Source: a virus. Taken from it: a stretch of 38,807 nt of DNA. The stretch lies in the IMG/VR virus record IMGVR_UViG_3300012931_000042, positions 1 to 38,807 of that record; one strand, given 5' to 3'. The translations under genes were made by a program, and so were the position numbers. The notes beneath the pieces were generated by a model, which did not search any database, had not been told where the DNA came from, and was given only the letters and a program-made list of their open reading frames with translations. Below are positions 18,684-31,928 of this stretch, one piece after another (position 1 is the stretch's first letter; every line of letters begins with the position of its first letter).

Positions 18684-18768
18684 GGAGGGGTTCCCGAGCG
18701 GCCAAAGGGGACAGACTGTAAATCTGTTGGCGTTGCCTTCGTAGGTTCAAATCCTACTCCCTCCACCA
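18684..18768 (+). tRNA. tRNA-Tyr(GTA): tRNA-Tyr (anticodon GTA), class II with a long variable arm and encoded CCA
   Basis: Acceptor GGAGGGG/TCCCTCC. Anticodon stem acaga/tctgt with loop cTGTAaa. T-arm gtagg-ttcaaat-cctac. Discriminator A followed by CCA. Confidence 0.9.
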
Positions 18769-18926: not shown

Positions 18927-19517
18927 TTACTGACTCTGACTTTTGTTATCAAATGTTCCACGTGAAACATCAGAAATATCTTTTTGCATTCTCTTGTCCA
19001 AAATTTTTTGAATTTCTTCGATAATTCCGATAGATACTCTTTGATTGAACAGGTTTTCTGATTCTTCTAACAAGAAGAGGCATGATTTAATAGAAGAATA
19101 ATCTCTTACAATATCGACTAAATCGATTCCGTTACTCAACGAAAGAACTTGCTCTATTTGTAGATGCAGATCTTTTTCTTCTGTTGCAGACAATCTTTCT
19201 TTCAGAGAATCAAGAGTTTTCACTTTTAACACAGAGTTATCACTCTTTATTGTTTTTCTATTTTCAAATAAAAGCTGAAACTTTTTAACTACATAGTTTC
19301 TTCTTGTCTCATCAAAAAAATTCAGAGCTCTTTTTATACTAAACTCACAAGAAACTACATTGCTCACTTGTTTCAATATATTATAAAGATATAATGAGTC
19401 ATCGATAGATAAGGCTCCGTCAACGATCTTTATAGCAATAGGTTCTTCTTCTTTTTGTCTTACCCATATATCCGAAATTAAATCATTAAATTGTTTAAAA
19501 GAATAAAGCAAAATCAT
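18927..19517 (-). CDS. Hypothetical protein, 196 aa (paralogue B)
   Basis: Similar to 19552..20112 in its N-terminus (MILLYS/MLLLYK) and in a repeated 'IVSCxF...EIQKxxxxR' motif. Confidence 0.6.
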   Translation of the reverse strand: MILLYSFKQFNDLISDIWVRQKEEEPIAIKIVDGALSIDDSLYLYNILKQVSNVVSCEFSIKRALNFFDETRRNYVVKKFQLLFENRKTIKSDNSVLKVKTLDSLKERLSATEEKDLHLQIEQVLSLSNGIDLVDIVRDYSSIKSCLFLLEESENLFNQRVSIGIIEEIQKILDKRMQKDISDVSRGTFDNKSQSQ

Positions 19518-19551
19518 TTCTTTTCTCCTATCTTTTCTGTTTTCTAAACTC

Positions 19552-20112
19552 TTAGTTTAGTTTGGCGATATTATCTAAAAATCTAGAATTTATAACTTTT
19601 TGAATTTCATCTCGAACACGAAGAAAAACATAAGAAACAAAATCATTCGGAGATTCTGTTGTTTCATAAAAACAAGAAACAATGTTAGCGTTTTTGCTGA
19701 CAAGATCTACTAATCTTATTCCTTCGTCGAGAGATATTGGTTTCTCTATTTTTAATACGACATTCATATTTGAACTTTGTTTTATTTTTTTCGAAATCTC
19801 GTCGAAATCTCGAGAGAAAAGAAACAATTCTTTTTTGCTTATCCCAGATTGATCTCTCTTGCTAAATATTCTTTGAATTTCTTTTAAAACATTTGTTCTT
19901 CTGTTTGCGTCAAATAAGTTTCTTGCCATTTTTGTCTTAAACTTCAAAGAGACAATCCGAGCAATTTGTTTTGAAAGCGCCAACAAATTTATTGTGTCTT
20001 GGATAGAGAGTTCTCCAACGATTTCAATTTCTATCTTTTCGTCAGACTCGCTTTCTTTTACTAATTTCTCCGAAAGAAAACAGAGCTCATCACTTTTATA
20101 TAGCAATAGCAT
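19552..20112 (-). CDS. Hypothetical protein, 186 aa (paralogue A)
   Basis: See paralogue B. Each protein appears to be two copies of a ~85-aa domain. Confidence 0.6.
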   Translation of the reverse strand: MLLLYKSDELCFLSEKLVKESESDEKIEIEIVGELSIQDTINLLALSKQIARIVSLKFKTKMARNLFDANRRTNVLKEIQRIFSKRDQSGISKKELFLFSRDFDEISKKIKQSSNMNVVLKIEKPISLDEGIRLVDLVSKNANIVSCFYETTESPNDFVSYVFLRVRDEIQKVINSRFLDNIAKLN

Positions 20113-20148
20113 TTTTTTGCCTCTTATTATTATTATAAAAAATAAAAA

Positions 20149-20310
20149 CTAATCATCCCCTAAAAAAATGGAGATAAAATACACGACGACAATAATTAGA
20201 CATAGAGGATGAATCGCCGCGAAGGAAAAAAATATTCCGGCAATTAATCCGTAATAGAAAAGTAATGAAATTGTTTCAGAAAAAGATGACTTTCTGTTTT
20301 TGTTTTCCAT
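20149..20310 (-). CDS. Possible small membrane protein, 53 aa (below the ORF-track cutoff)
   Basis: Hand translation MENKNRKSSFSETISLLFYYGLIAGIFFSFAAIHPLCLIIVVVYFISIFLGDD has two hydrophobic stretches. The RBS is weak. Confidence 0.3.
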   Translation of the reverse strand: MENKNRKSSFSETISLLFYYGLIAGIFFSFAAIHPLCLIIVVVYFISIFLGDD

Positions 20311-20334
20311 TTTTAATACGTTCCAAACTTAAAA

Positions 20335-21897
20335 TTAAAACTTCTCTATATTACTAAATCCTTTGTCAAGTCGCAATCTATTCGACAATTTTTCTGCTAA
20401 TTCGTCTGTTCTTTTGTTATTGTTCCAATTAAACCCTTGAACGATCTTGTTAACTAGTGCCGAATCAATTGCCATTTCTAATGTGTCTGCAATGTCATCG
20501 TGAGAATGCGAATTGGTAAGGGTAATTCTTATCATATGTTCAATGCACATTTCGGCGTGCTTTGCATATTTGTGAATACTGATTAGTTTCTTTTTTATAA
20601 ACGGCTGCATTGCAAGAAAACGAGTGACTTTTGAATTTTGTTTGTGAACGATTGGTAGAACAATTAATCCTTGAACCTTGCCAAGTACTGAAAGTAATGT
20701 AACTCCAGTTGATGCTTTTTCGATGCAGGCGGCGACGGGAGGGCAAGGACTGCGTTTGATCCTGAAAGTACAAGCTGATGAATAGAAGGACCAAAAATAT
20801 TTTTCTAAATCACAAGGCTCAACCGCAATTTCCATGCAATCGATCCACACCAGGCCGTAAACGTCTGTTTCAATATTATTTTGAATAATTTTGTGGACGC
20901 CCCAAAGAGAAAAAACTGTTTTGTCGTTGAATGTTTTTGCTGTCTCGGCTGTGTCGCAAGTTATGAATGTAAATTCTATATTTTCAGGGAATTTGTCGAT
21001 AAATAAGAAATCTTCTTTCTTGAAAATAGAACCGCCGACAGGAATTGGCTCTTGTTGCATTTGAGACCAAAAAACAAAATCATTTACTTTTTTTTCTATT
21101 TCTAATCTTTCGGCAGGGTAGAGATCGGGGTCAAATGAGTTTCCAGCGTCATCCAATGCCTTTATTTTTATGTGTTCCCATTTTTGCCCGTCTCCTCCTT
21201 TTAAAAGAAACCCAGCAAGATCGTCTTCGTGAACTCTCTGACCGATGAAAACAATGGGTATTTTCATGTTAGGGACTCGTGTCTTTAGAGTGGTATTATA
21301 AATCTCAATTGAGTGCCGCCTGACCGGTTCGCTCAAGATTTCTCCAGGCTTATGAGCGTCATCAATTATTAGCGCTCCTGTTGGTCTTTCTTGTAAGGGG
21401 ATGCCAACGTCTAATCCTACGATTGTGCTATCAAGTCCCGCCGCAAAAATTTTGCCTCCATAATTCGTTTCAAATGACTTTCCTTTCGAAATCTTTGGAT
21501 TGACTCGCACCCCGAAAAGCTCTTCGTAATAAGGCAAAGACATGATATCCTTTATCATTCGAGTTTTTGTTAGCGCTAAATCCATTGATATTGAAACGTA
21601 ACTAAAATTTGAATCAGGGAATTGTGAAAGAACCCAGGTGATCCAAAAAACGACATCCGTGCTTTTCCCCGAACGTGGAGGAACATTAATGACTACTCGA
21701 GGCAGTAGTCCTTGCGTGACCTTGGTAAGTGTCCTGGATATTATTATTGTATGACTTTCTCTTCCGACCGGACGAGAAATTGTAAATTCTCTGTTCGTGT
21801 ATAATTTATAGAAGAGTTGGGTGTACTTTAAAAGAGATCCCCATAGTTCTTTTTTTATTTCGTTTTTTTCTTCCTTCGCATTTGGCAAATAAATCAT
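20335..21897 (-). CDS. terL: Terminase large subunit, 520 aa
   Basis: Walker A 'PPRSGKST', Walker B-like 'GALIIDDAHK', and nuclease-domain acidic motifs 'FITCDTAET' and 'HDDIADTLEMAI'. Confidence 0.85.
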   Translation of the reverse strand: MIYLPNAKEEKNEIKKELWGSLLKYTQLFYKLYTNREFTISRPVGRESHTIIISRTLTKVTQGLLPRVVINVPPRSGKSTDVVFWITWVLSQFPDSNFSYVSISMDLALTKTRMIKDIMSLPYYEELFGVRVNPKISKGKSFETNYGGKIFAAGLDSTIVGLDVGIPLQERPTGALIIDDAHKPGEILSEPVRRHSIEIYNTTLKTRVPNMKIPIVFIGQRVHEDDLAGFLLKGGDGQKWEHIKIKALDDAGNSFDPDLYPAERLEIEKKVNDFVFWSQMQQEPIPVGGSIFKKEDFLFIDKFPENIEFTFITCDTAETAKTFNDKTVFSLWGVHKIIQNNIETDVYGLVWIDCMEIAVEPCDLEKYFWSFYSSACTFRIKRSPCPPVAACIEKASTGVTLLSVLGKVQGLIVLPIVHKQNSKVTRFLAMQPFIKKKLISIHKYAKHAEMCIEHMIRITLTNSHSHDDIADTLEMAIDSALVNKIVQGFNWNNNKRTDELAEKLSNRLRLDKGFSNIEKF

Positions 21898-21899
21898 TT

Positions 21900-22343
21900 T
21901 TATTTTGATACATATTTGAAAATTGAGTCAAAAAAATTCTCAGAATAAGGAAGACAAATAACTTTCACCGAATCTTCTTCTGCGTAAACCTTTTGAAGAA
22001 CATGGAAGACAATGTCTTTATCATTTTCAAAAAAAATTCCTTGCAGGGCGTCTTCCAGCGGCTTTAGCATGTTGGAGCTATCCGGTTTAACCATAGGTAG
22101 ATTGTACTTTGGTTTCTTCGGCCTTTTTATAAAAAAGGTCACGCAGAGGATAATAGGTCCTTCTATCATTTTTTTATTTGATTCTTTTAGATACCGTTTT
22201 GCGTAGAAGGACAAAAGACGCTGATACCACTTTACGGTTTTTGATGAATATGCGGCACCGGTTTTCCGATTGAAAGAGATTTCTCTTTTCGGAAGAGGTC
22301 TCAATTTGAACACAAATTCGAGTTCAAATTGGGACGTCGTCAT
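21900..22343 (-). CDS. rusA: RusA-family Holliday junction resolvase
   Basis: 'KPDSSNMLKPLEDALQGIFFENDKDIV' matches the RusA D-x-DN-x-K...D-x-L...DD motif. The ATG at 22343 is preferred over the track TTG at 22349. Confidence 0.7.
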   Translation of the reverse strand: MTTSQFELEFVFKLRPLPKREISFNRKTGAAYSSKTVKWYQRLLSFYAKRYLKESNKKMIEGPIILCVTFFIKRPKKPKYNLPMVKPDSSNMLKPLEDALQGIFFENDKDIVFHVLQKVYAEEDSVKVICLPYSENFFDSIFKYVSK

Positions 22344-22722
22344 CGACAAACTCTACTGATATTTCTTTTTTTGCGTAATTTTTTGTGCGACCTGTTCCAG
22401 AATATTCGTCATTCAATTCCCATTCGAATGTTAAATCTTTTCCAACCAATTCATCTGTATCGTCGAAAGATTTTAACCCGACTGCCTTGCAGAGTTTACT
22501 CAGAATTTTTTTGGAAATTTGAACTGTGGCAGGATTTTCATTAACGATGTTAAATCGTTCCACCACGAATCTTCCTTTATAATTTCCATCGATGATCTCG
22601 ATGTTGACTTGTAGGTATTCTCCAGGATTCCGAGAACAAACTTTGATTTCCGCACTGCTTATCCTCCCATTATAAACTCCGGAAGGGAGGTTCGAGTCAG
22701 TCACGTCGAAATGATATCTCAT
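22324..22722 (-). CDS. DUF669-like protein (probable ssDNA-binding partner of Sak4), 132 aa
   Basis: Size, OB-like sequence pattern and synteny next to a Sak4-type ATPase. No decisive motif. Confidence 0.4.
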   Translation of the reverse strand: MRYHFDVTDSNLPSGVYNGRISSAEIKVCSRNPGEYLQVNIEIIDGNYKGRFVVERFNIVNENPATVQISKKILSKLCKAVGLKSFDDTDELVGKDLTFEWELNDEYSGTGRTKNYAKKEISVEFVDDDVPI

Positions 22723-23024
22723 ACTTTATCCTCTGCATTTATTCTAGATTTCAAAACAACACTTGGTCGAAAATAGATTTTTTTCTTTTTTGGCAAAAGC
22801 AAACGTTTCCCTTTCAAAATTACAGATCGTTCCTTCATTTCTCTAATGGAAAAAGCGCCAAAACCTCTTAAAAAAACTTCGTTTCCAAGAGATATTTTTT
22901 CGAAAACTTTTGCTAAAAATATATCTAAGTACTCTGTAAAAAAAAGTCTTTTCACTTTTTTTTGAGAATGTTCACAAACTTCGTCTATTGTTTCGCTAAT
23001 TAATTGCGATTTTGTTACTCTCAT
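22719..23024 (-). CDS. HU/IHF-family DNA-binding protein, 101 aa
   Basis: 'GNEVFLRGFGAFSIREMKERS...KKIYFRPSVVLKSRIN' matches the HU/IHF G-x-V-x-L-x-GFG-x-F...R...F-x-P pattern. Confidence 0.65.
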   Translation of the reverse strand: MRVTKSQLISETIDEVCEHSQKKVKRLFFTEYLDIFLAKVFEKISLGNEVFLRGFGAFSIREMKERSVILKGKRLLLPKKKKIYFRPSVVLKSRINAEDKV

Positions 23025-23877
23025 TTGTTTTTGCCCTTAAATACTCTAATATTTTTCTTGCTTCTTCTTCGCCTAAATCTGATAGAGCGTCGACTTCAGC
23101 TTTTTCGATCCATTTCTGAACAATTTCATCAGGAACGTTTAAACTTTTTACTAGGCTATTTATTTCTGCCAAATCTTTAGTAGACACAAAATGATAAGGC
23201 TTGGTTTCTCGAAGCAAATATTCTTTTTCGAATTTCTCAGAAAAAAGAGAAAAGTCAATAGGAATAATTTCTCCTCTTTCAAAATTTTCGAATCGGCTCC
23301 CTTCAACAACGGCAGTGTAGTCCTTTTGAGTTTTCAAAATCAAGTCAAACAAATAGTCTTGTTTCTTCCAGCAATCAAATGTCTCTCCGATTTTTGCCAT
23401 TCTATCATCGAATTTTTCCTTGATGTGAGAGGTCAAAATCACGTTCATGTCGAGACGAAGAAGGAGAAGAGTAAGGACCTTCATTTTCTTGTTTGTGTCA
23501 GCAAAAGGCTTCCCGAATGCATTCGGATTTGTTTTCTTTGCAGTTTCGGGGCTTAATTTCTTTGTCATTTCTGAGTTTAAGACGTTTTCGTATATTGTTG
23601 TAATTGGGTCAATAATTAATGTTTTGTAATCGTGTTTTTCGGAGATGAGCGATTTAACTTCAATAATTAAATCATCGTATGATGAGGTTTGATACCTAAC
23701 CCCATCTCTATCTTCTAATGCCTTCCTATATTTCGGACATTCTGATCCTCGTTCTGTGTCGATCAAGTACGGTTTTGGAAAATTAAGGCTGAAAAGAGTT
23801 TTTCCGCTCTTTGCAGGGCCAAAAATAAACAATTTCAATCGTCTTTCAACATCTGCAGGCTTTTTTGCACGCAACAT
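22996..23877 (-). CDS. Sak4-like (AAA_24) RecA-family recombination ATPase
   Basis: 'KLFIFGPAKSGKTLFSLNFPKPYLIDTERG' (Walker A followed by D-T-E-x-G) and 'TLIIDPITT' (Walker B). The ATG at 23877 lies 8 nt after aggag. Confidence 0.7.
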   Translation of the reverse strand: MLRAKKPADVERRLKLFIFGPAKSGKTLFSLNFPKPYLIDTERGSECPKYRKALEDRDGVRYQTSSYDDLIIEVKSLISEKHDYKTLIIDPITTIYENVLNSEMTKKLSPETAKKTNPNAFGKPFADTNKKMKVLTLLLLRLDMNVILTSHIKEKFDDRMAKIGETFDCWKKQDYLFDLILKTQKDYTAVVEGSRFENFERGEIIPIDFSLFSEKFEKEYLLRETKPYHFVSTKDLAEINSLVKSLNVPDEIVQKWIEKAEVDALSDLGEEEARKILEYLRAKTNESNKIAIN

Positions 23878-23882
23878 ACATA

Positions 23883-24233
23883 TCACTCCTTTTGCTTGTT
23901 ATTCAAATGCATTTCAATCCAAAATTTTGATTCGATTTCTTTTTTCGCTGTTTCGAATTGATCTGGGTTCTTTTTCAAATATCTGTATCGAATTCCATTC
24001 GCCCACTCTTTTTGTTTTAAACTTCCAATTAATTCCGGCAATTTAAGCTCGAGAGACTGTTGTTTTATTTTTTCTTTTTCGGCGAAAGAAATTCTTTTTG
24101 CCTTATTCCTCTTCGACTCTATCGTTCCAACTTTTTTTATCTCTTTTGTCACTCCGGTTGAGGATATTGTTATTAGATATTTGTCTAAATATCCTTGGTA
24201 TTTGTCGCTTTTTTTCAAAACGGTAAATTCCAT
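23883..24233 (-). CDS. Hypothetical protein, 116 aa
   Basis: ATG at 24233 is preceded by gaggtggcaa. Lys-rich. Confidence 0.5.
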   Translation of the reverse strand: MEFTVLKKSDKYQGYLDKYLITISSTGVTKEIKKVGTIESKRNKAKRISFAEKEKIKQQSLELKLPELIGSLKQKEWANGIRYRYLKKNPDQFETAKKEIESKFWIEMHLNNKQKE

Positions 24234-24287
24234 TTGCCACCTCAAAACAAAAGAAAACATTGAGAACTCAAAGCATTCTATCCGTTT

Positions 24288-24824
24288 TTATTTGAAAGTC
24301 AAGCATGAATATATGCGATTTAACCATCCGAGTAAAAATTGTCGATTGTGAGGTTCTGTTGCGATTCTTCGATAACGATCAGTCAACAGACAAAGATAAA
24401 TATAGGAGAGAGGGTTCTCCTTGCAGGAATTTATGGTTGCCATAGTCTTCGCCCCTATTATCCCATCAGAGTCTAATCCGCAAGCAGGGAGCAGGACTAA
24501 GCATGCCTTCTGCAAAAGAAGGTTGGCCGTATAGGCACCCATGTTTACAGCACATGAAAAGCATAAAAAACCAAGTTTTTTGGGGAATTTTTCATAGTTA
24601 TTTTTCTCCCAAAACTCTTCGAAATAAATCTTTTTTGCGTTTTCGCGCGTCAGGCAAATGATCTCATTTTCTGGCATGTCTCTTTTATAGTACGTGCCGA
24701 GGAATCTCTTGGAGAGCCCGAACTTCGTAGGCCCTCCAGCATCTCCTTCTATTTTGCAGAAGATTCCTTCCTGTTCCATAAGAAGAGCGAAGGCGTTTTC
24801 AAAAAACGAAGAGTAGACCACCAT
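24288..24824 (-). CDS. Endolysin, GH108-type lysozyme with a C-terminal PG_binding_3-like domain, 178 aa
   Basis: N-terminal 'LLMEQEGIFCKIEGDAGGPTKFGLS' fits E-x-G...D-x-GG-x-T-x-x-G. C-terminal 'DSDGIIGAKTMATIN' fits the peptidoglycan-binding motif. Confidence 0.7.
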   Translation of the reverse strand: MVVYSSFFENAFALLMEQEGIFCKIEGDAGGPTKFGLSKRFLGTYYKRDMPENEIICLTRENAKKIYFEEFWEKNNYEKFPKKLGFLCFSCAVNMGAYTANLLLQKACLVLLPACGLDSDGIIGAKTMATINSCKENPLSYIYLCLLTDRYRRIATEPHNRQFLLGWLNRIYSCLTFK

Positions 24825-25045
24825 TATCGATTCCCTTTTGTTTCCGAGTCAGATTCCGAGTCCGAACTTAAATTGAATGTCGAATTGAAAATAGTTGGAT
24901 CTAATTCGTCCCGACGAATTACTACGTCGATCGGAGCGTCGAATTGAATTTTAACCTGTGATCCTTGGATAGATTTTACTGTTATCTTGATGGTGTCATC
25001 AATCCAAATTGATTGTCCTACCTTTCTTCCTAATGTTAACCCCAT
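24824..25045 (-). CDS. csrA: CsrA/RsmA-family RNA-binding regulator homologue, 73 aa with an acidic Ser-rich tail
   Basis: 'MGLTLGRKVGQSIWIDDTIKITVKSIQGSQVKIQFDAPIDVVIRRDEL' aligns along its length with CsrA '[47 protein letters not shown]'. Its TAA overlaps the endolysin ATG (TAATG). Confidence 0.75.
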   Translation of the reverse strand: MGLTLGRKVGQSIWIDDTIKITVKSIQGSQVKIQFDAPIDVVIRRDELDPTIFNSTFNLSSDSESDSETKGNR

Positions 25046-25162
25046 GTTTGTCTTCCTTTTAAAAATGAAGCATTTTCCTTGAATGCCAAAGCATTCGCAA
25101 CGGTTTTTTAAAAAAAGCAGGGAAACAGTTTCTCTTTTTTAAAAAGGGATATACCATTCTTT

Positions 25163-25359
25163 AAATAGGTGCGAAAAGCCTGTGGATAACTTTTTATTCT
25201 AGTTTAAGCCTTAAAACATAATGATTCTTTGACAATACAAGGAGAAGCCTGTGGATAACTTTTGTTTTTCTGTGGATAACCCTGTGGATAACTCTGTTTT
25301 AAATAGGGGCGAAGAAAAAATAGAATGGGTGCAAAACAAAGAGGTAAATAGGGGGCGAA
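25163..25359. promoter_or_regulatory. Putative replication origin with four DnaA boxes and three iterons
   Basis: TGTGGATAA (the reverse complement of TTATCCACA) at 25181, 25250, 25271 and 25284, all in the same orientation. AAATAGG(T/G)GCGAA at 25163 and 25301, and a variant with an extra G at 25346. Further copies at 25612 and, degenerate, at 25863. Confidence 0.65.
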
Positions 25360-26018
25360 AGCAAATAAAGTTTGGCCTGCTCTTGCATCTATATCATACA
25401 GAAAAAGATCCGATAAAAAAGAAAGAAACGACAAGAGATCTGGCCAAGAAATTTGGTAACGTAGAATCGGTAAGAAGTGCAATAAAGCGGTTAAAGGCGG
25501 AGAAATTAATTCAGGTTTTAGAGTCAAAAAAAGGCAGAAACGGCTATACAGTTTTAGGAGTAACTATTGAAGGGAAAGAGTTTCTGATTGATCGATTAGA
25601 AGAGGAAAATAAAATAGGGGCGAAACCCACTCTATTTAGTAATTTAGATTTTATATATAAAAAGAAAACTAATAAAAGAAAAGATGAAAGAGCAAACGAG
25701 GAAACTCCAGCTTGGGACAGAATACGATTCGACCGTTTAATGCAATATGGGTTTAAGAAGGTTCATGTTCAGCAATTGAAGCACTCTCGGTTGACCCCAG
25801 ACCAGATTCAAGAATCCATTAATGCCTTTTCCTTCGATCTTGTACGAGGAAACAAACTAAGCAAAATTAGGGGCGGAGAAAAAGGAGTCCTTCGATATTT
25901 TATGGGAATTCTTATGAGATCTCGTGTATATTGTCCATCTGAAGATTTTTTGTTAGAGAAAGAACGCGTTTCTGGCGATTATTTTTCTTTGGGCAATGCA
26001 GACGCCAATTCTCTGTAA
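25251..26018 (+). CDS. Rep-like winged-helix DNA-binding protein (putative replication initiator). The start codon is uncertain.
   Basis: wHTH-like 'TRDLAKKFGNVESVRSAIKRLKAEKLIQVLESKKGRNGYTVLG'. The track start is a GTG inside a DnaA box. In-frame alternatives are GTG 25329 and TTG 25383. There is no in-frame ATG before about 25740. Confidence 0.5.
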   Translation: MDNFCFSVDNPVDNSVLNRGEEKIEWVQNKEVNRGRKQIKFGLLLHLYHTEKDPIKKKETTRDLAKKFGNVESVRSAIKRLKAEKLIQVLESKKGRNGYTVLGVTIEGKEFLIDRLEEENKIGAKPTLFSNLDFIYKKKTNKRKDERANEETPAWDRIRFDRLMQYGFKKVHVQQLKHSRLTPDQIQESINAFSFDLVRGNKLSKIRGGEKGVLRYFMGILMRSRVYCPSEDFLLEKERVSGDYFSLGNADANSL

Positions 26019-26075
26019 AAAAATCGAACCTTGATCGTCCTGGATGCCGTATGATTTATTTTTTATGGGGTTTCT

Positions 26076-26279
26076 ATGTTTAAAAAGCTGTTAAGCCTGA
26101 TTTCGAGAATAAGTTTTTTCGCGCGTAGATCGGAAAAACAAAAATCGGAGATAAAAGAACTCAACTCGATAAAAAAATGCGCCGGCAAACTCCAACTCGA
26201 ATTAGTAGATATAATCAACAATCTTGAAAAACTGAAAAAACTAATAAAAAGCGCGGCGCAAGATGTTTGCGAAAAATAA
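26076..26279 (+). CDS. Hypothetical small charged helical protein, 67 aa
   Basis: ATG ORF in the rightward cluster. K/E-rich. Confidence 0.4.
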   Translation: MFKKLLSLISRISFFARRSEKQKSEIKELNSIKKCAGKLQLELVDIINNLEKLKKLIKSAAQDVCEK

Positions 26280-26288
26280 AGAAGATTT

Positions 26289-26525
26289 ATGAAATTTGAT
26301 TTTATAACTTTAAAAATGAGATGCGGCCATAAAGAGAAAATTGCGTTTCGTCCCAATTTATTTAACACGAAAGAGGATGTCATTGATACAGCAAAAAGGG
26401 CAATATGTTTTGAGTGCGAACGGAAATTAAAGGCCGTTCCTCTTCTTGTAACCGATTTTATCATAACTAGAAAACACAGACTTGTTCGATATTTCGAGGC
26501 ATTAAAACCGATAATTATATTATAG
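26289..26525 (+). CDS. Hypothetical protein, 78 aa, possible zinc ribbon (C-x-H ... C-x-x-C)
   Basis: Contains 'RCGHKEK...AICFECERK'. Confidence 0.4.
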   Translation: MKFDFITLKMRCGHKEKIAFRPNLFNTKEDVIDTAKRAICFECERKLKAVPLLVTDFIITRKHRLVRYFEALKPIIIL

Positions 26526-26555
26526 ATAATTCTCCGTCAAAAAGGAAAAAACATC

Positions 26556-27113
26556 ATGGAATCTAAATGGATACCTTTCAGAGAATTTAAGCCGTTTGAT
26601 GCCGAATTTCTTGCTTTTCCTTCGCATTTTTTTAAGCCTAAAGATCCTTGCCATTTCGTCCATAACCCAAATATCATAACGAGCGTTTTTCGCTGGAGAT
26701 CAATATCAGAGGATGTATTACCAGATTTAGAAAAAATTGAAGAATGCCCTTTTCGCGCGCAAAAAAACAGAGATCTTCTGAAAGATATCTGTTTTGTTTT
26801 AAATGTTGAATGGATCAACGGAGAAATCTTTGTATCTGGTCTAATGAGACCAACCGATTATGATTTTATTGGTTTTCAATTTTTAGTTCCAAAGGTTTTT
26901 GTCGGAGAGTTCAAAAACATTAAAGATTTCTCCGAACACTATACAGAGTTTTTAAGAGAGTTTCTTGACGTTTTTTGCGTCTGTTTTGAAGACAAGTCTT
27001 TATTTGAAAATCGAGTGAAAATCGCTTCCAATGAAATAATGATCAAAATTTTATCTATGCTGAACGAAATAGAACGGAAGGAGAAAGAACATGGAAATGA
27101 AATGGGCTCCTAA
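26556..27113 (+). CDS. Hypothetical protein, 185 aa
   Basis: RBS aaggaaaaaacatcATG. No motif recognised. Confidence 0.55.
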   Translation: MESKWIPFREFKPFDAEFLAFPSHFFKPKDPCHFVHNPNIITSVFRWRSISEDVLPDLEKIEECPFRAQKNRDLLKDICFVLNVEWINGEIFVSGLMRPTDYDFIGFQFLVPKVFVGEFKNIKDFSEHYTEFLREFLDVFCVCFEDKSLFENRVKIASNEIMIKILSMLNEIERKEKEHGNEMGS

Positions 27114-31352: not shown

Positions 31353-31691
31353 TCAAAAAGCATATTCATAACTGATTTCCTTTGCAAGCTCGTCACGCAA
31401 AATCTCAAATTTGAATTCGATTTCCCAATCAACATCCTTCTCTAATAGTCGAAAAATTTCCGATTTTTCTTCTTCTTCTATTTTCTTTCTTTCGATATAT
31501 TTTTGCATTAACGCGGAGAGATTTCGCTCGCTCTTGTGAAAAGATATTGTGTTTGAAAACAACCATTCCTTTCTCAGGATCTTTTTCGTTTCTTCGGGAA
31601 TCTCGGCATATGTCCGATACATTTCGCATACGTTTTGCATTGTTTCACGAAATAAAACAGTTCCTAGAATTTTTAACATAAAATCCTCCAT
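31353..31691 (-). CDS. Hypothetical protein, 108-112 aa (second ATG at 31679 has the better RBS, ggaggatttt)
   Basis: Open frame in the leftward early-type cluster. Confidence 0.5.
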   Translation of the reverse strand: MEDFMLKILGTVLFRETMQNVCEMYRTYAEIPEETKKILRKEWLFSNTISFHKSERNLSALMQKYIERKKIEEEEKSEIFRLLEKDVDWEIEFKFEILRDELAKEISYEYAF

Positions 31692-31700
31692 TTTTATTGC

Positions 31701-31928
31701 TCAATCTTCGCTATCTTGCCCTTTCATCACATATATCCTGAACCATTTTTCTTTTCCATGGATATTGATTCGCCTCCAACAACCAACTATTTTTCCTTCT
31801 TTTGTTCGAGCAATTATCTCATGACCAGATGTGGCCTTGACTATAAATTCTATATCTTTGTTCCTGTAGGTGGCCGATGAATAAAATTCTTGCCCTGATT
31901 TTGATCCTACTACTTCTATTCTATACAT
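31701..31928 (-). CDS. Hypothetical protein, 75 aa
   Basis: ATG at 31928 is preceded by caaggaggaaac (strong SD). This replaces the 136-aa track ORF. Confidence 0.55.
   Translation of the reverse strand: MYRIEVVGSKSGQEFYSSATYRNKDIEFIVKATSGHEIIARTKEGKIVGCWRRINIHGKEKWFRIYVMKGQDSED

Follow-up and report, generated by a model that had tools for sequence, protein, structure and literature searches.

A divergent CsrA-family gene at the head of the leftward operon of an uncultured tailed phage and its overlap with a lysin gene

The csrA-like locus

The DNA under study is IMG/VR virus record IMGVR_UViG_3300012931_000042, positions 1 to 38,807 (the whole stretch is hereafter referred to as the window), which corresponds to a complete virus genome (38,807 bp; direct terminal repeats; estimated completeness, 100%). 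Its csrA-like gene, an open reading frame (ORF) of 73 amino acids on the minus strand (24824..25045), uses the earliest start codon available in its frame and is gene 1 of a leftward operon, in which it is followed by the genes of a GH108 lysin, a 125-amino-acid unknown protein, an AAA_24 protein, an HU-like protein, a DUF669 protein, RusA and the large terminase (TerL). The original prediction for this locus proposed a phage-encoded CsrA homologue, coupled to the endolysin and autoregulated through two GGA sites in its own leader. Accordingly, three parts of the locus are considered here: (i) the csrA-like gene itself; (ii) its junction with the lysin gene; and (iii) its leader.

Identity, RNA-contact residues and modelled fold of the CsrA-like protein

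With full support from profile, residues and modelled fold, ORF 24824..25045 encodes a genuine but divergent CsrA-family protein. The protein reaches 56.4 bits against the Pfam CsrA profile (PF02599; gathering score 27), its residues 3-48 lying on positions 2-47 of the 53 positions of the profile, and a six-frame search recovers CsrA at 56.1 bits. Furthermore, it matches PHROG 9500 (E 1.3e-14) and PHROG 8397, both of them named 'CsrA-like regulator', and its sequence matches in the PDB are RsmE and CsrA (E 6e-8).

The RNA-contact residues of the family are located in strands beta1 and beta5 and are taken, in Escherichia coli numbering, to be those of alanine-scanning work and of the RsmE-RNA structure. 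In HMMER alignments to RsmE (2jpp), Geobacillus CsrA (5dmb) and Pseudomonas aeruginosa RsmA (7yr6), these positions are retained: L3, L5, R7, K8, V41, I43, R45, E47 and L48 of the phage protein stand opposite canonical L2, L4, R6, R/K7, V40, V42, R44, E46 and I47, respectively. When the protein is aligned with 53 single-domain relatives, (i) L3, R7 and R45 are invariant; and (ii) L5, G10, A37, P38 and E47 are conserved at 90% or more. The R-x-E of the VIRRDEL motif corresponds to R45-D46-E47, which is equivalent to R44-E45-E46 of RsmE/CsrA. The proposed homology along the RNA-binding domain, R-x-E included, is thus borne out by the PF02599 profile search, the residues and the fold.

The AlphaFold2 model of the monomer has predicted local distance difference test (pLDDT) values of 94-98 for residues 1-40, 89 for residues 41-50 and approximately 62 for the tail. 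The top 15 PDB matches found by Foldseek are CsrA, RsmA and RsmE chains only, with template modelling (TM) scores by target of 0.51-0.87 and E-values of 1e-4 to 1.4e-2 (11 of them at or below 1e-3). Two parts can be distinguished in the protein: a CsrA core (residues 1-49) and a Ser/Asp/Glu-rich tail (residues 50-73), DPTIFNSTFNLSSDSESDSETKGNR, which stands in place of the usual helix region. Ends of a similar 'ELxP' type, with variable acidic or Ser-rich tails after them, also occur in several of the nearest relatives. As to the interlocked homodimer with two RNA-binding faces that characterises the family, the two-copy prediction scored 0.34, against a mark of 0.42, and was not used for or against dimerisation.

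Within the ORF there is also a perfect 8-bp hairpin, UAAUUCGU-CGGG-ACGAAUUA (24902..24921, minus strand; inverted repeat I4; -6.1 kcal/mol). It falls exactly on the VIRRDEL codons and its G-rich loop holds most of a GGA.

Overlap with the lysin gene

The second gene of the operon (24288..24824, minus strand) encodes a GH108 muramidase of 178 amino acids with a PG_binding_3 domain, as judged by PF05838 (59.1 bits against 21.2), PF09374 (32.5 bits against 24.6) and PHROG 315, endolysin (E 8e-30). Since no other peptidoglycan hydrolase was found among the phage ORFs scanned, the GH108 protein is likely to be the phage endolysin. This sole recognisable lysin sits in a replication/recombination operon, with no adjoining holin or spanin candidate; the 125-amino-acid ORF next after it has no hydrophobic segment.

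The csrA stop codon (TAA, 24826-24824) and the lysin ATG have A24824 in common, forming a TAATG stop/start overlap (24822..24826, minus strand). The overlap on which the proposed coupling was based is therefore real, and it permits translational coupling. Nevertheless, the csrA-lysin pair is not singled out by it: overlaps of 1 or 4 nucleotides (nt) are present at no fewer than five other junctions (2926/2929, 4467, 15978/15981, 22719/22722 and 23883/23886), so that the overlap reflects ordinary phage gene packing, and the lysin gene has a Shine-Dalgarno (SD) sequence of its own, AAGGGAA, 7 nt before its ATG. The TAATG was also considered as a special coupling device and rejected, given the genome-wide recurrence of such overlaps.

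The csrA leader

In the proximal leader of csrA (25046..25100, minus strand), one GGA (25056-25054) lies within the SD sequence, AAAGGAAG, and another (25078-25076) within an upstream CAAGGAA. The letters and coordinates of both sites, including the placement of the second one in the SD, agree with the original prediction. The two GGAs are 22 nt apart and the AGGA of the SD is 8 nt from the ATG. No sigma-70 consensus promoter was detected on the minus strand of 25046-25250, where inspection by eye alone provides weak candidates, namely TGGTATATC at 25156-25148 and TAGAAT near 25200.

It had been proposed that the first GGA is presented in the loop of a hairpin, GCAUU/CAAGGAA/AAUGC (25070..25086, minus strand; -2.7 kcal/mol). 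In partition-function folds of the leader from six different 5' ends, the pair probability of this stem is 0.00-0.02, whereas that of a competing hairpin, GAAUGC/UUUG/GCAUUC (25081..25096, minus strand; -7.7 kcal/mol), is 0.8-0.98 wherever it could be scored. Both hairpins make use of the same GCAUU, which is the 5' arm of the former and the 3' arm of the latter, and the minimum free energy structure of the leader agrees with the competing hairpin. According to these folds, the proposed hairpin is disfavoured unless the transcript starts 3' of approximately 25091; hence, the display of the first GGA in a loop is not borne out. In the modelled ensemble, this GGA is located just 3' of the competing hairpin and is mostly unpaired (0.34-0.95 over four bases, depending on the 5' end). 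An unpaired GGA beside a hairpin would be no bar to CsrA binding. For 5' ends beyond approximately 25130, the SD GGA largely pairs with a U/C-rich tract upstream of it. In stability, the full leader (101 nt) does not exceed its shuffles (z = -0.25).

Frequency of GGA motifs in the genome

The typical SD of this phage is (T)AGGAGA. Half of the crude gene starts (26 of 52) have a GGA within the SD region (-18..-4), and hence a GGA over the csrA SD does not discriminate; the more demanding A(N)GGA is found at 21 of the 52, so that its position over the SD does not go beyond chance either. As for the upstream partner, 40% of the minus-strand GGAs have an A(N)GGA at 10-60 nt upstream and 13% have one at 15-30 nt. 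A hairpin loop can be drawn around 189 of the 1141 GGAs (17%) under a simple rule (stem, ≥5 bp, G-U pairs allowed; loop, 4-9 nt). The upstream site of the csrA leader matches 8 of the 12 positions of the CsrA consensus obtained by systematic evolution of ligands by exponential enrichment (SELEX), RUACARGGAUGU, as counted by eye, below the 9/12 from which matches were listed. Because the motif pair is at chance level, the two-site leader has no weight as evidence: it consists of an ordinary SD plus one chance-level upstream GGA.

Other components of a Csr system were sought in the phage. No CsrB/RsmZ-type RNA was found by Rfam, and FliW is absent from the phage. Likewise, comparison of window coordinates with the ORF list showed that, on both strands, the windows densest in GGA include no non-coding stretch.

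The GGA cluster at the csrA-lysin junction

The 3' end of csrA contains four GGAs (24832..24863, minus strand; at 24863, 24857, 24845 and 24834), which occupy positions -39, -33, -21 and -10 of the lysin ATG. With 4 GGAs in -45..-1, the lysin start ranks first of 44 (there are 7 in -45..+60), and 0.7% of the 45-nt windows of the minus strand reach 4. The GGA density of csrA itself (9 in 222 nt) is the second highest of 44 genes. The stretch before the lysin ATG is less structured than its shuffles (z = +1.39). Furthermore, six GGA-in-loop candidates, the maximum, are reached in 0.4% of 320-nt windows, which fall in only three regions: 24759-25086, a HEAT-repeat array and 31370-31744.

Two of the four junction GGAs are generated by a 12-nt tandem duplication (24842..24865; family D2, 92% identity), which corresponds to the codons SDSE SDSE of the CsrA tail. 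In this tail, TCG is used in 3 of the 4 Ser codons that precede Asp or Glu, compared with 13% in the rest of the genome; owing to the tandem duplication, these are not independent events. All the junction tests were post hoc, that is, they were picked after seeing the data. Cis-regulation of the csrA-lysin segment by the phage CsrA is rated as possible.

The region 31370-31744 (minus strand) is a non-repeat region, located around and within a 112-amino-acid ORF (31353..31691). It includes a 10/12 match to the SELEX consensus, AGAGAAGGATGT, at 31432-31443, and a start codon in a hairpin loop.

Relatives of the protein and of the locus

A word-indexed search with the CsrA protein returned only itself. 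By contrast, an exhaustive HMMER search returned 1033 CsrA proteins at E ≤0.001, of which four reached E ≤1e-10 and none was close; single-domain matches show up to 50-60% identity over the 47-amino-acid core. The nearest copies from isolated phages are the annotated csrA genes of Vibrio crassostreae phages, with 42% identity, which lie among small hypothetical genes and not beside a lysin. Among the relatives whose contexts were inspected, two are chromosomal (P0079 and P0045) and another (P0080) is accompanied by four unannotated small ORFs on a 1.9-kb contig. Scans of viral contigs found no relative locus with either CsrA or the lysin as query and, in consequence, there is no comparative support for the leader sites.

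Many of the best-scoring relatives (P0002-P0014 and others; L006, 6001-6381) are proteins of 101-310 amino acids with two to four tandem CsrA domains, which are possibly single-chain 'dimers'. One such tandem-domain protein (P0151, 126 amino acids) has a phage-like context with an HNH gene.

Phage genome and setting

The genome encodes portal, major head, head-closure and fibre-like proteins together with TerL, as corresponds to a tailed phage, and has a G+C content of 34-43%. The identical contig is present in two public samples (SRR6436070 and ERZ27227667), and a megablast of 22000-27000 against phage and plasmid collections found no near-identical DNA. When TerL was used to scan genome contigs, no match was obtained; its look-up in Atlas gave viral clusters only. 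The phage carries one tRNA-Tyr (GTA) with a long variable arm (18684-18768, plus strand), and an exact search with the core of this tRNA gave no match in 185,579 species genomes.

Downstream of the lysin gene, the leftward operon (18927..24260, minus strand) comprises the genes of the 125-amino-acid unknown protein, the AAA_24 ATPase, the HU-like protein, the DUF669 protein, RusA and TerL, a 53-amino-acid ORF and two paralogous orphan genes. The content of the operon thus spans from replication/recombination to the terminase.

The intergenic DNA on the 5' side of csrA (approximately 205 bp) contains one DnaA box; another three, together with iteron-like repeats, extend into the start of a divergent ORF. 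This region of DnaA boxes (TTATCCACA on the minus strand) and iteron-like repeats (repeat D1) between csrA and the divergent gene is located at 25163..25359, in which the csrA promoter must lie. The divergent ORF (25251..26018, plus strand; 255 amino acids) is Rep-like by position and has a weak helix-turn-helix match (HTH_41, E 0.0017, below the cut-off). Its SD, AUACAAGGAG at 25235-25246 (plus strand), fits the SELEX consensus RUACARGGAUGU at 9 of 12 positions, the whole 5' part included, and its GTG start sits within a DnaA box. Between the DnaA box and the csrA leader (25104-25145) there are several overlapping A/T palindromes, of the TTTTTTAAAAA type, and a GAAAC-N-GUUUC palindrome, all of which may belong to the origin or to an operator.

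Discussion

Judging from its sequence, the ORF is probably a functional, divergent member of the CsrA/RsmA family that belongs to an uncultured tailed phage. Its product would be made from the onset of leftward-operon expression and its dimer would bind GGA in single-stranded or loop RNA, thereby altering the translation or stability of host mRNAs. The phage CsrA might be in competition with the host Csr system and may also target its own operon, which is GGA-rich in the csrA-lysin segment.

Several observations weigh against this reading. The NCBIfam csrA equivalogs were not reached (TIGR00202, 52.2 against 70.1; NF002469, 48.8 against 73; NF001844, 42 against 106), and therefore the protein belongs to the family without being a csrA of the housekeeping type. 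In place of the canonical C-terminal helix, it has an acidic tail that contains Pro and is modelled with low confidence. Moreover, clustering at the 50% level leaves the protein a singleton and, with no close relative, selection on the gene is not demonstrable by conservation. The two viral contigs nearest to this phage (L002 and L003), found via AAA_24 at 41% identity, are without any CsrA; hence, csrA is an accessory of the phage and not part of the core of this phage type. Finally, the SELEX consensus is not enriched in the genome, either at 9/12 or better (31 matches, versus 29.7 +/- 5.5 in shuffles) or at 10/12 or better (7 versus 5.3 +/- 2.1).

As to the targets of the protein, autoregulation would have one subunit of the dimer on the upstream CAAGGAA and the other on the SD GGA, as in the E. 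coli glgC and csrA leaders. The geometry fits known CsrA sites: CsrA bridging spans 10-63 nt, with an optimum above 18 nt (PMC7652899), a range that includes the 22-nt spacing of the phage leader, and the CAAGGA core of the upstream site is common to a fliC site supported by RNA immunoprecipitation sequencing (PMC13418256). Also in favour are the largely unpaired state of the first GGA in the ensemble and the place of the csrA region in the top three GGA-in-loop clusters. Nevertheless, GGA is the normal SD of this phage (26/52 starts), 40% of the GGAs have an A(N)GGA within 10-60 nt upstream, the proposed hairpin has a probability of about zero against a competitor that is 5 kcal/mol better, the leader fold does not improve on shuffles, and the upstream site fits the SELEX consensus at only 8/12. 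Of the autoregulated two-site leader, then, the geometry stands, while the motif pair is at chance and the hairpin is disfavoured. Self-repression via the two-GGA leader is possible but not indicated, and we regard autoregulation of this kind as rather unlikely. The timing of lysis through the lysin gene, which had also been suggested, would require binding of CsrA to the four GGAs between -39 and -10, either by itself or combined with repression of the coupled csrA ORF upstream; the amount of free CsrA would then govern lysin synthesis. A hint in this direction comes from the first rank of the lysin start for GGAs (1 of 44), the low structure of the region, which would make it accessible, and the TCG usage in the tail (3/4 Ser codons versus 13% elsewhere); furthermore, repression transmitted by translational coupling is known from E. 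coli iraD (Park et al. 2017, as cited in PMC7652899). This hint is weak and post hoc, however, and part of it is explained by the tandem duplication, from which two of the GGAs derive, so that the cluster may be a by-product of the acidic low-complexity tail. There is no adjoining holin and lysis timing is normally set elsewhere, the overlap is of a type common in the genome, and the other phage csrA genes examined are not beside lysins. Gating of the lysin in this manner is consequently considered improbable.

The most specific form of cis-regulation would turn the csrA-lysin junction, with its four GGAs in 32 nt and its GGA-in-loop candidates, into a phage-owned CsrA operator, through which CsrA would shut off its own synthesis and that of the coupled endolysin. 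This is very improbable; if it were true, lysin supply and lysis competence would be set by the feedback of an RNA-binding protein and not by a holin clock alone. A different role, as a decoy or antagonist, would consist of the titration of host Csr/Rsm sponge RNAs or of a host protein antagonist, or of the formation of mixed dimers with host CsrA. Such a role is consistent with the combination of a conserved core and a non-canonical C-terminus, since host antagonists of the FliW type act via the C-terminal extension of CsrA (PMC7652899), and with a phage that has no FliW of its own; in addition, phage and host CsrA presence are correlated (PMC8450108). The intact RNA-binding residues favour ordinary RNA binding instead, and a decoy function appears highly unlikely. 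The preferred reading is still that of a functional, divergent CsrA/RsmA family member.

Phage-encoded CsrA is a known kind of protein and what is new here is a divergent member. The csrA gene has been found in 30 out of 2517 phage genomes (Sobrero and Valverde, PMC7366521), and Campa et al. obtained many examples when applying a phage-CsrA profile to GenBank phages and IMG/VR, proposing host manipulation, including CRISPR-Cas repression (PMC8450108). The known phage CsrA/RsmA homologues (PHROG 9500/8397, the RsmM-type of Pseudomonas F116-like phages, Vibrio phage 219E41) are likewise small single-domain proteins of tailed phages, placed among early or small regulatory genes and with conserved RNA-binding residues. 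The present copy differs from those of isolated phages in its identity to them (at most 42%) and its acidic Ser/Asp/Glu tail, and from known phage csrA genes in that it is first in its operon, adjoins a DnaA-box/iteron region and has an overlap with the gene of a GH108 lysin. With the bacterial CsrA/RsmA/RsmE proteins (PDB 2jpp, 1y00, 1vpz, 5dmb), it shares the modelled fold and the RNA-contact residues, including R44 and E46, but it is virus-encoded, stays below the NCBIfam equivalog cut-offs and comes from a phage with no Rfam sponge RNA or FliW.

The leader can be compared with those of E. coli csrA and with the two-site glgC leader (Yakhnin 2011; Baker 2002; Mercante 2009; as reviewed in PMC7652899), which, according to that review, likewise have a GGA over the SD and a second one, here 22 nt upstream. 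In the phage leader, by contrast, there are two sites only, the favoured hairpin does not hold the upstream GGA in its loop, the arrangement is no rarer in this genome than expected by chance, and binding is predicted. Plasmid CsrA proteins are likewise borne by mobile elements: RsmQ, encoded by pQBR103, takes over host translational control (PMC9928087), and the csrA of pMBA19a is, as cited in PMC7366521, located in the replication region, similarly to the position of the phage csrA beside the DnaA-box/iteron region. The element is here a phage instead of a plasmid, and global takeover of host translation is known for RsmQ.

Phage-borne csrA genes are widespread and none is known to have a demonstrated role. 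The present copy alone leaves existing knowledge unchanged, and the specific claim of autoregulation is no better than chance; what it provides is a divergent csrA from a complete genome, clearly placed as the first gene of its operon beside an origin-like region. A simple test RNA could be made of its csrA-lysin segment, which is small and rich in GGA. In general terms, host translation, motility, carbon use or CRISPR-Cas expression could come under the control of a phage CsrA (PMC8450108).

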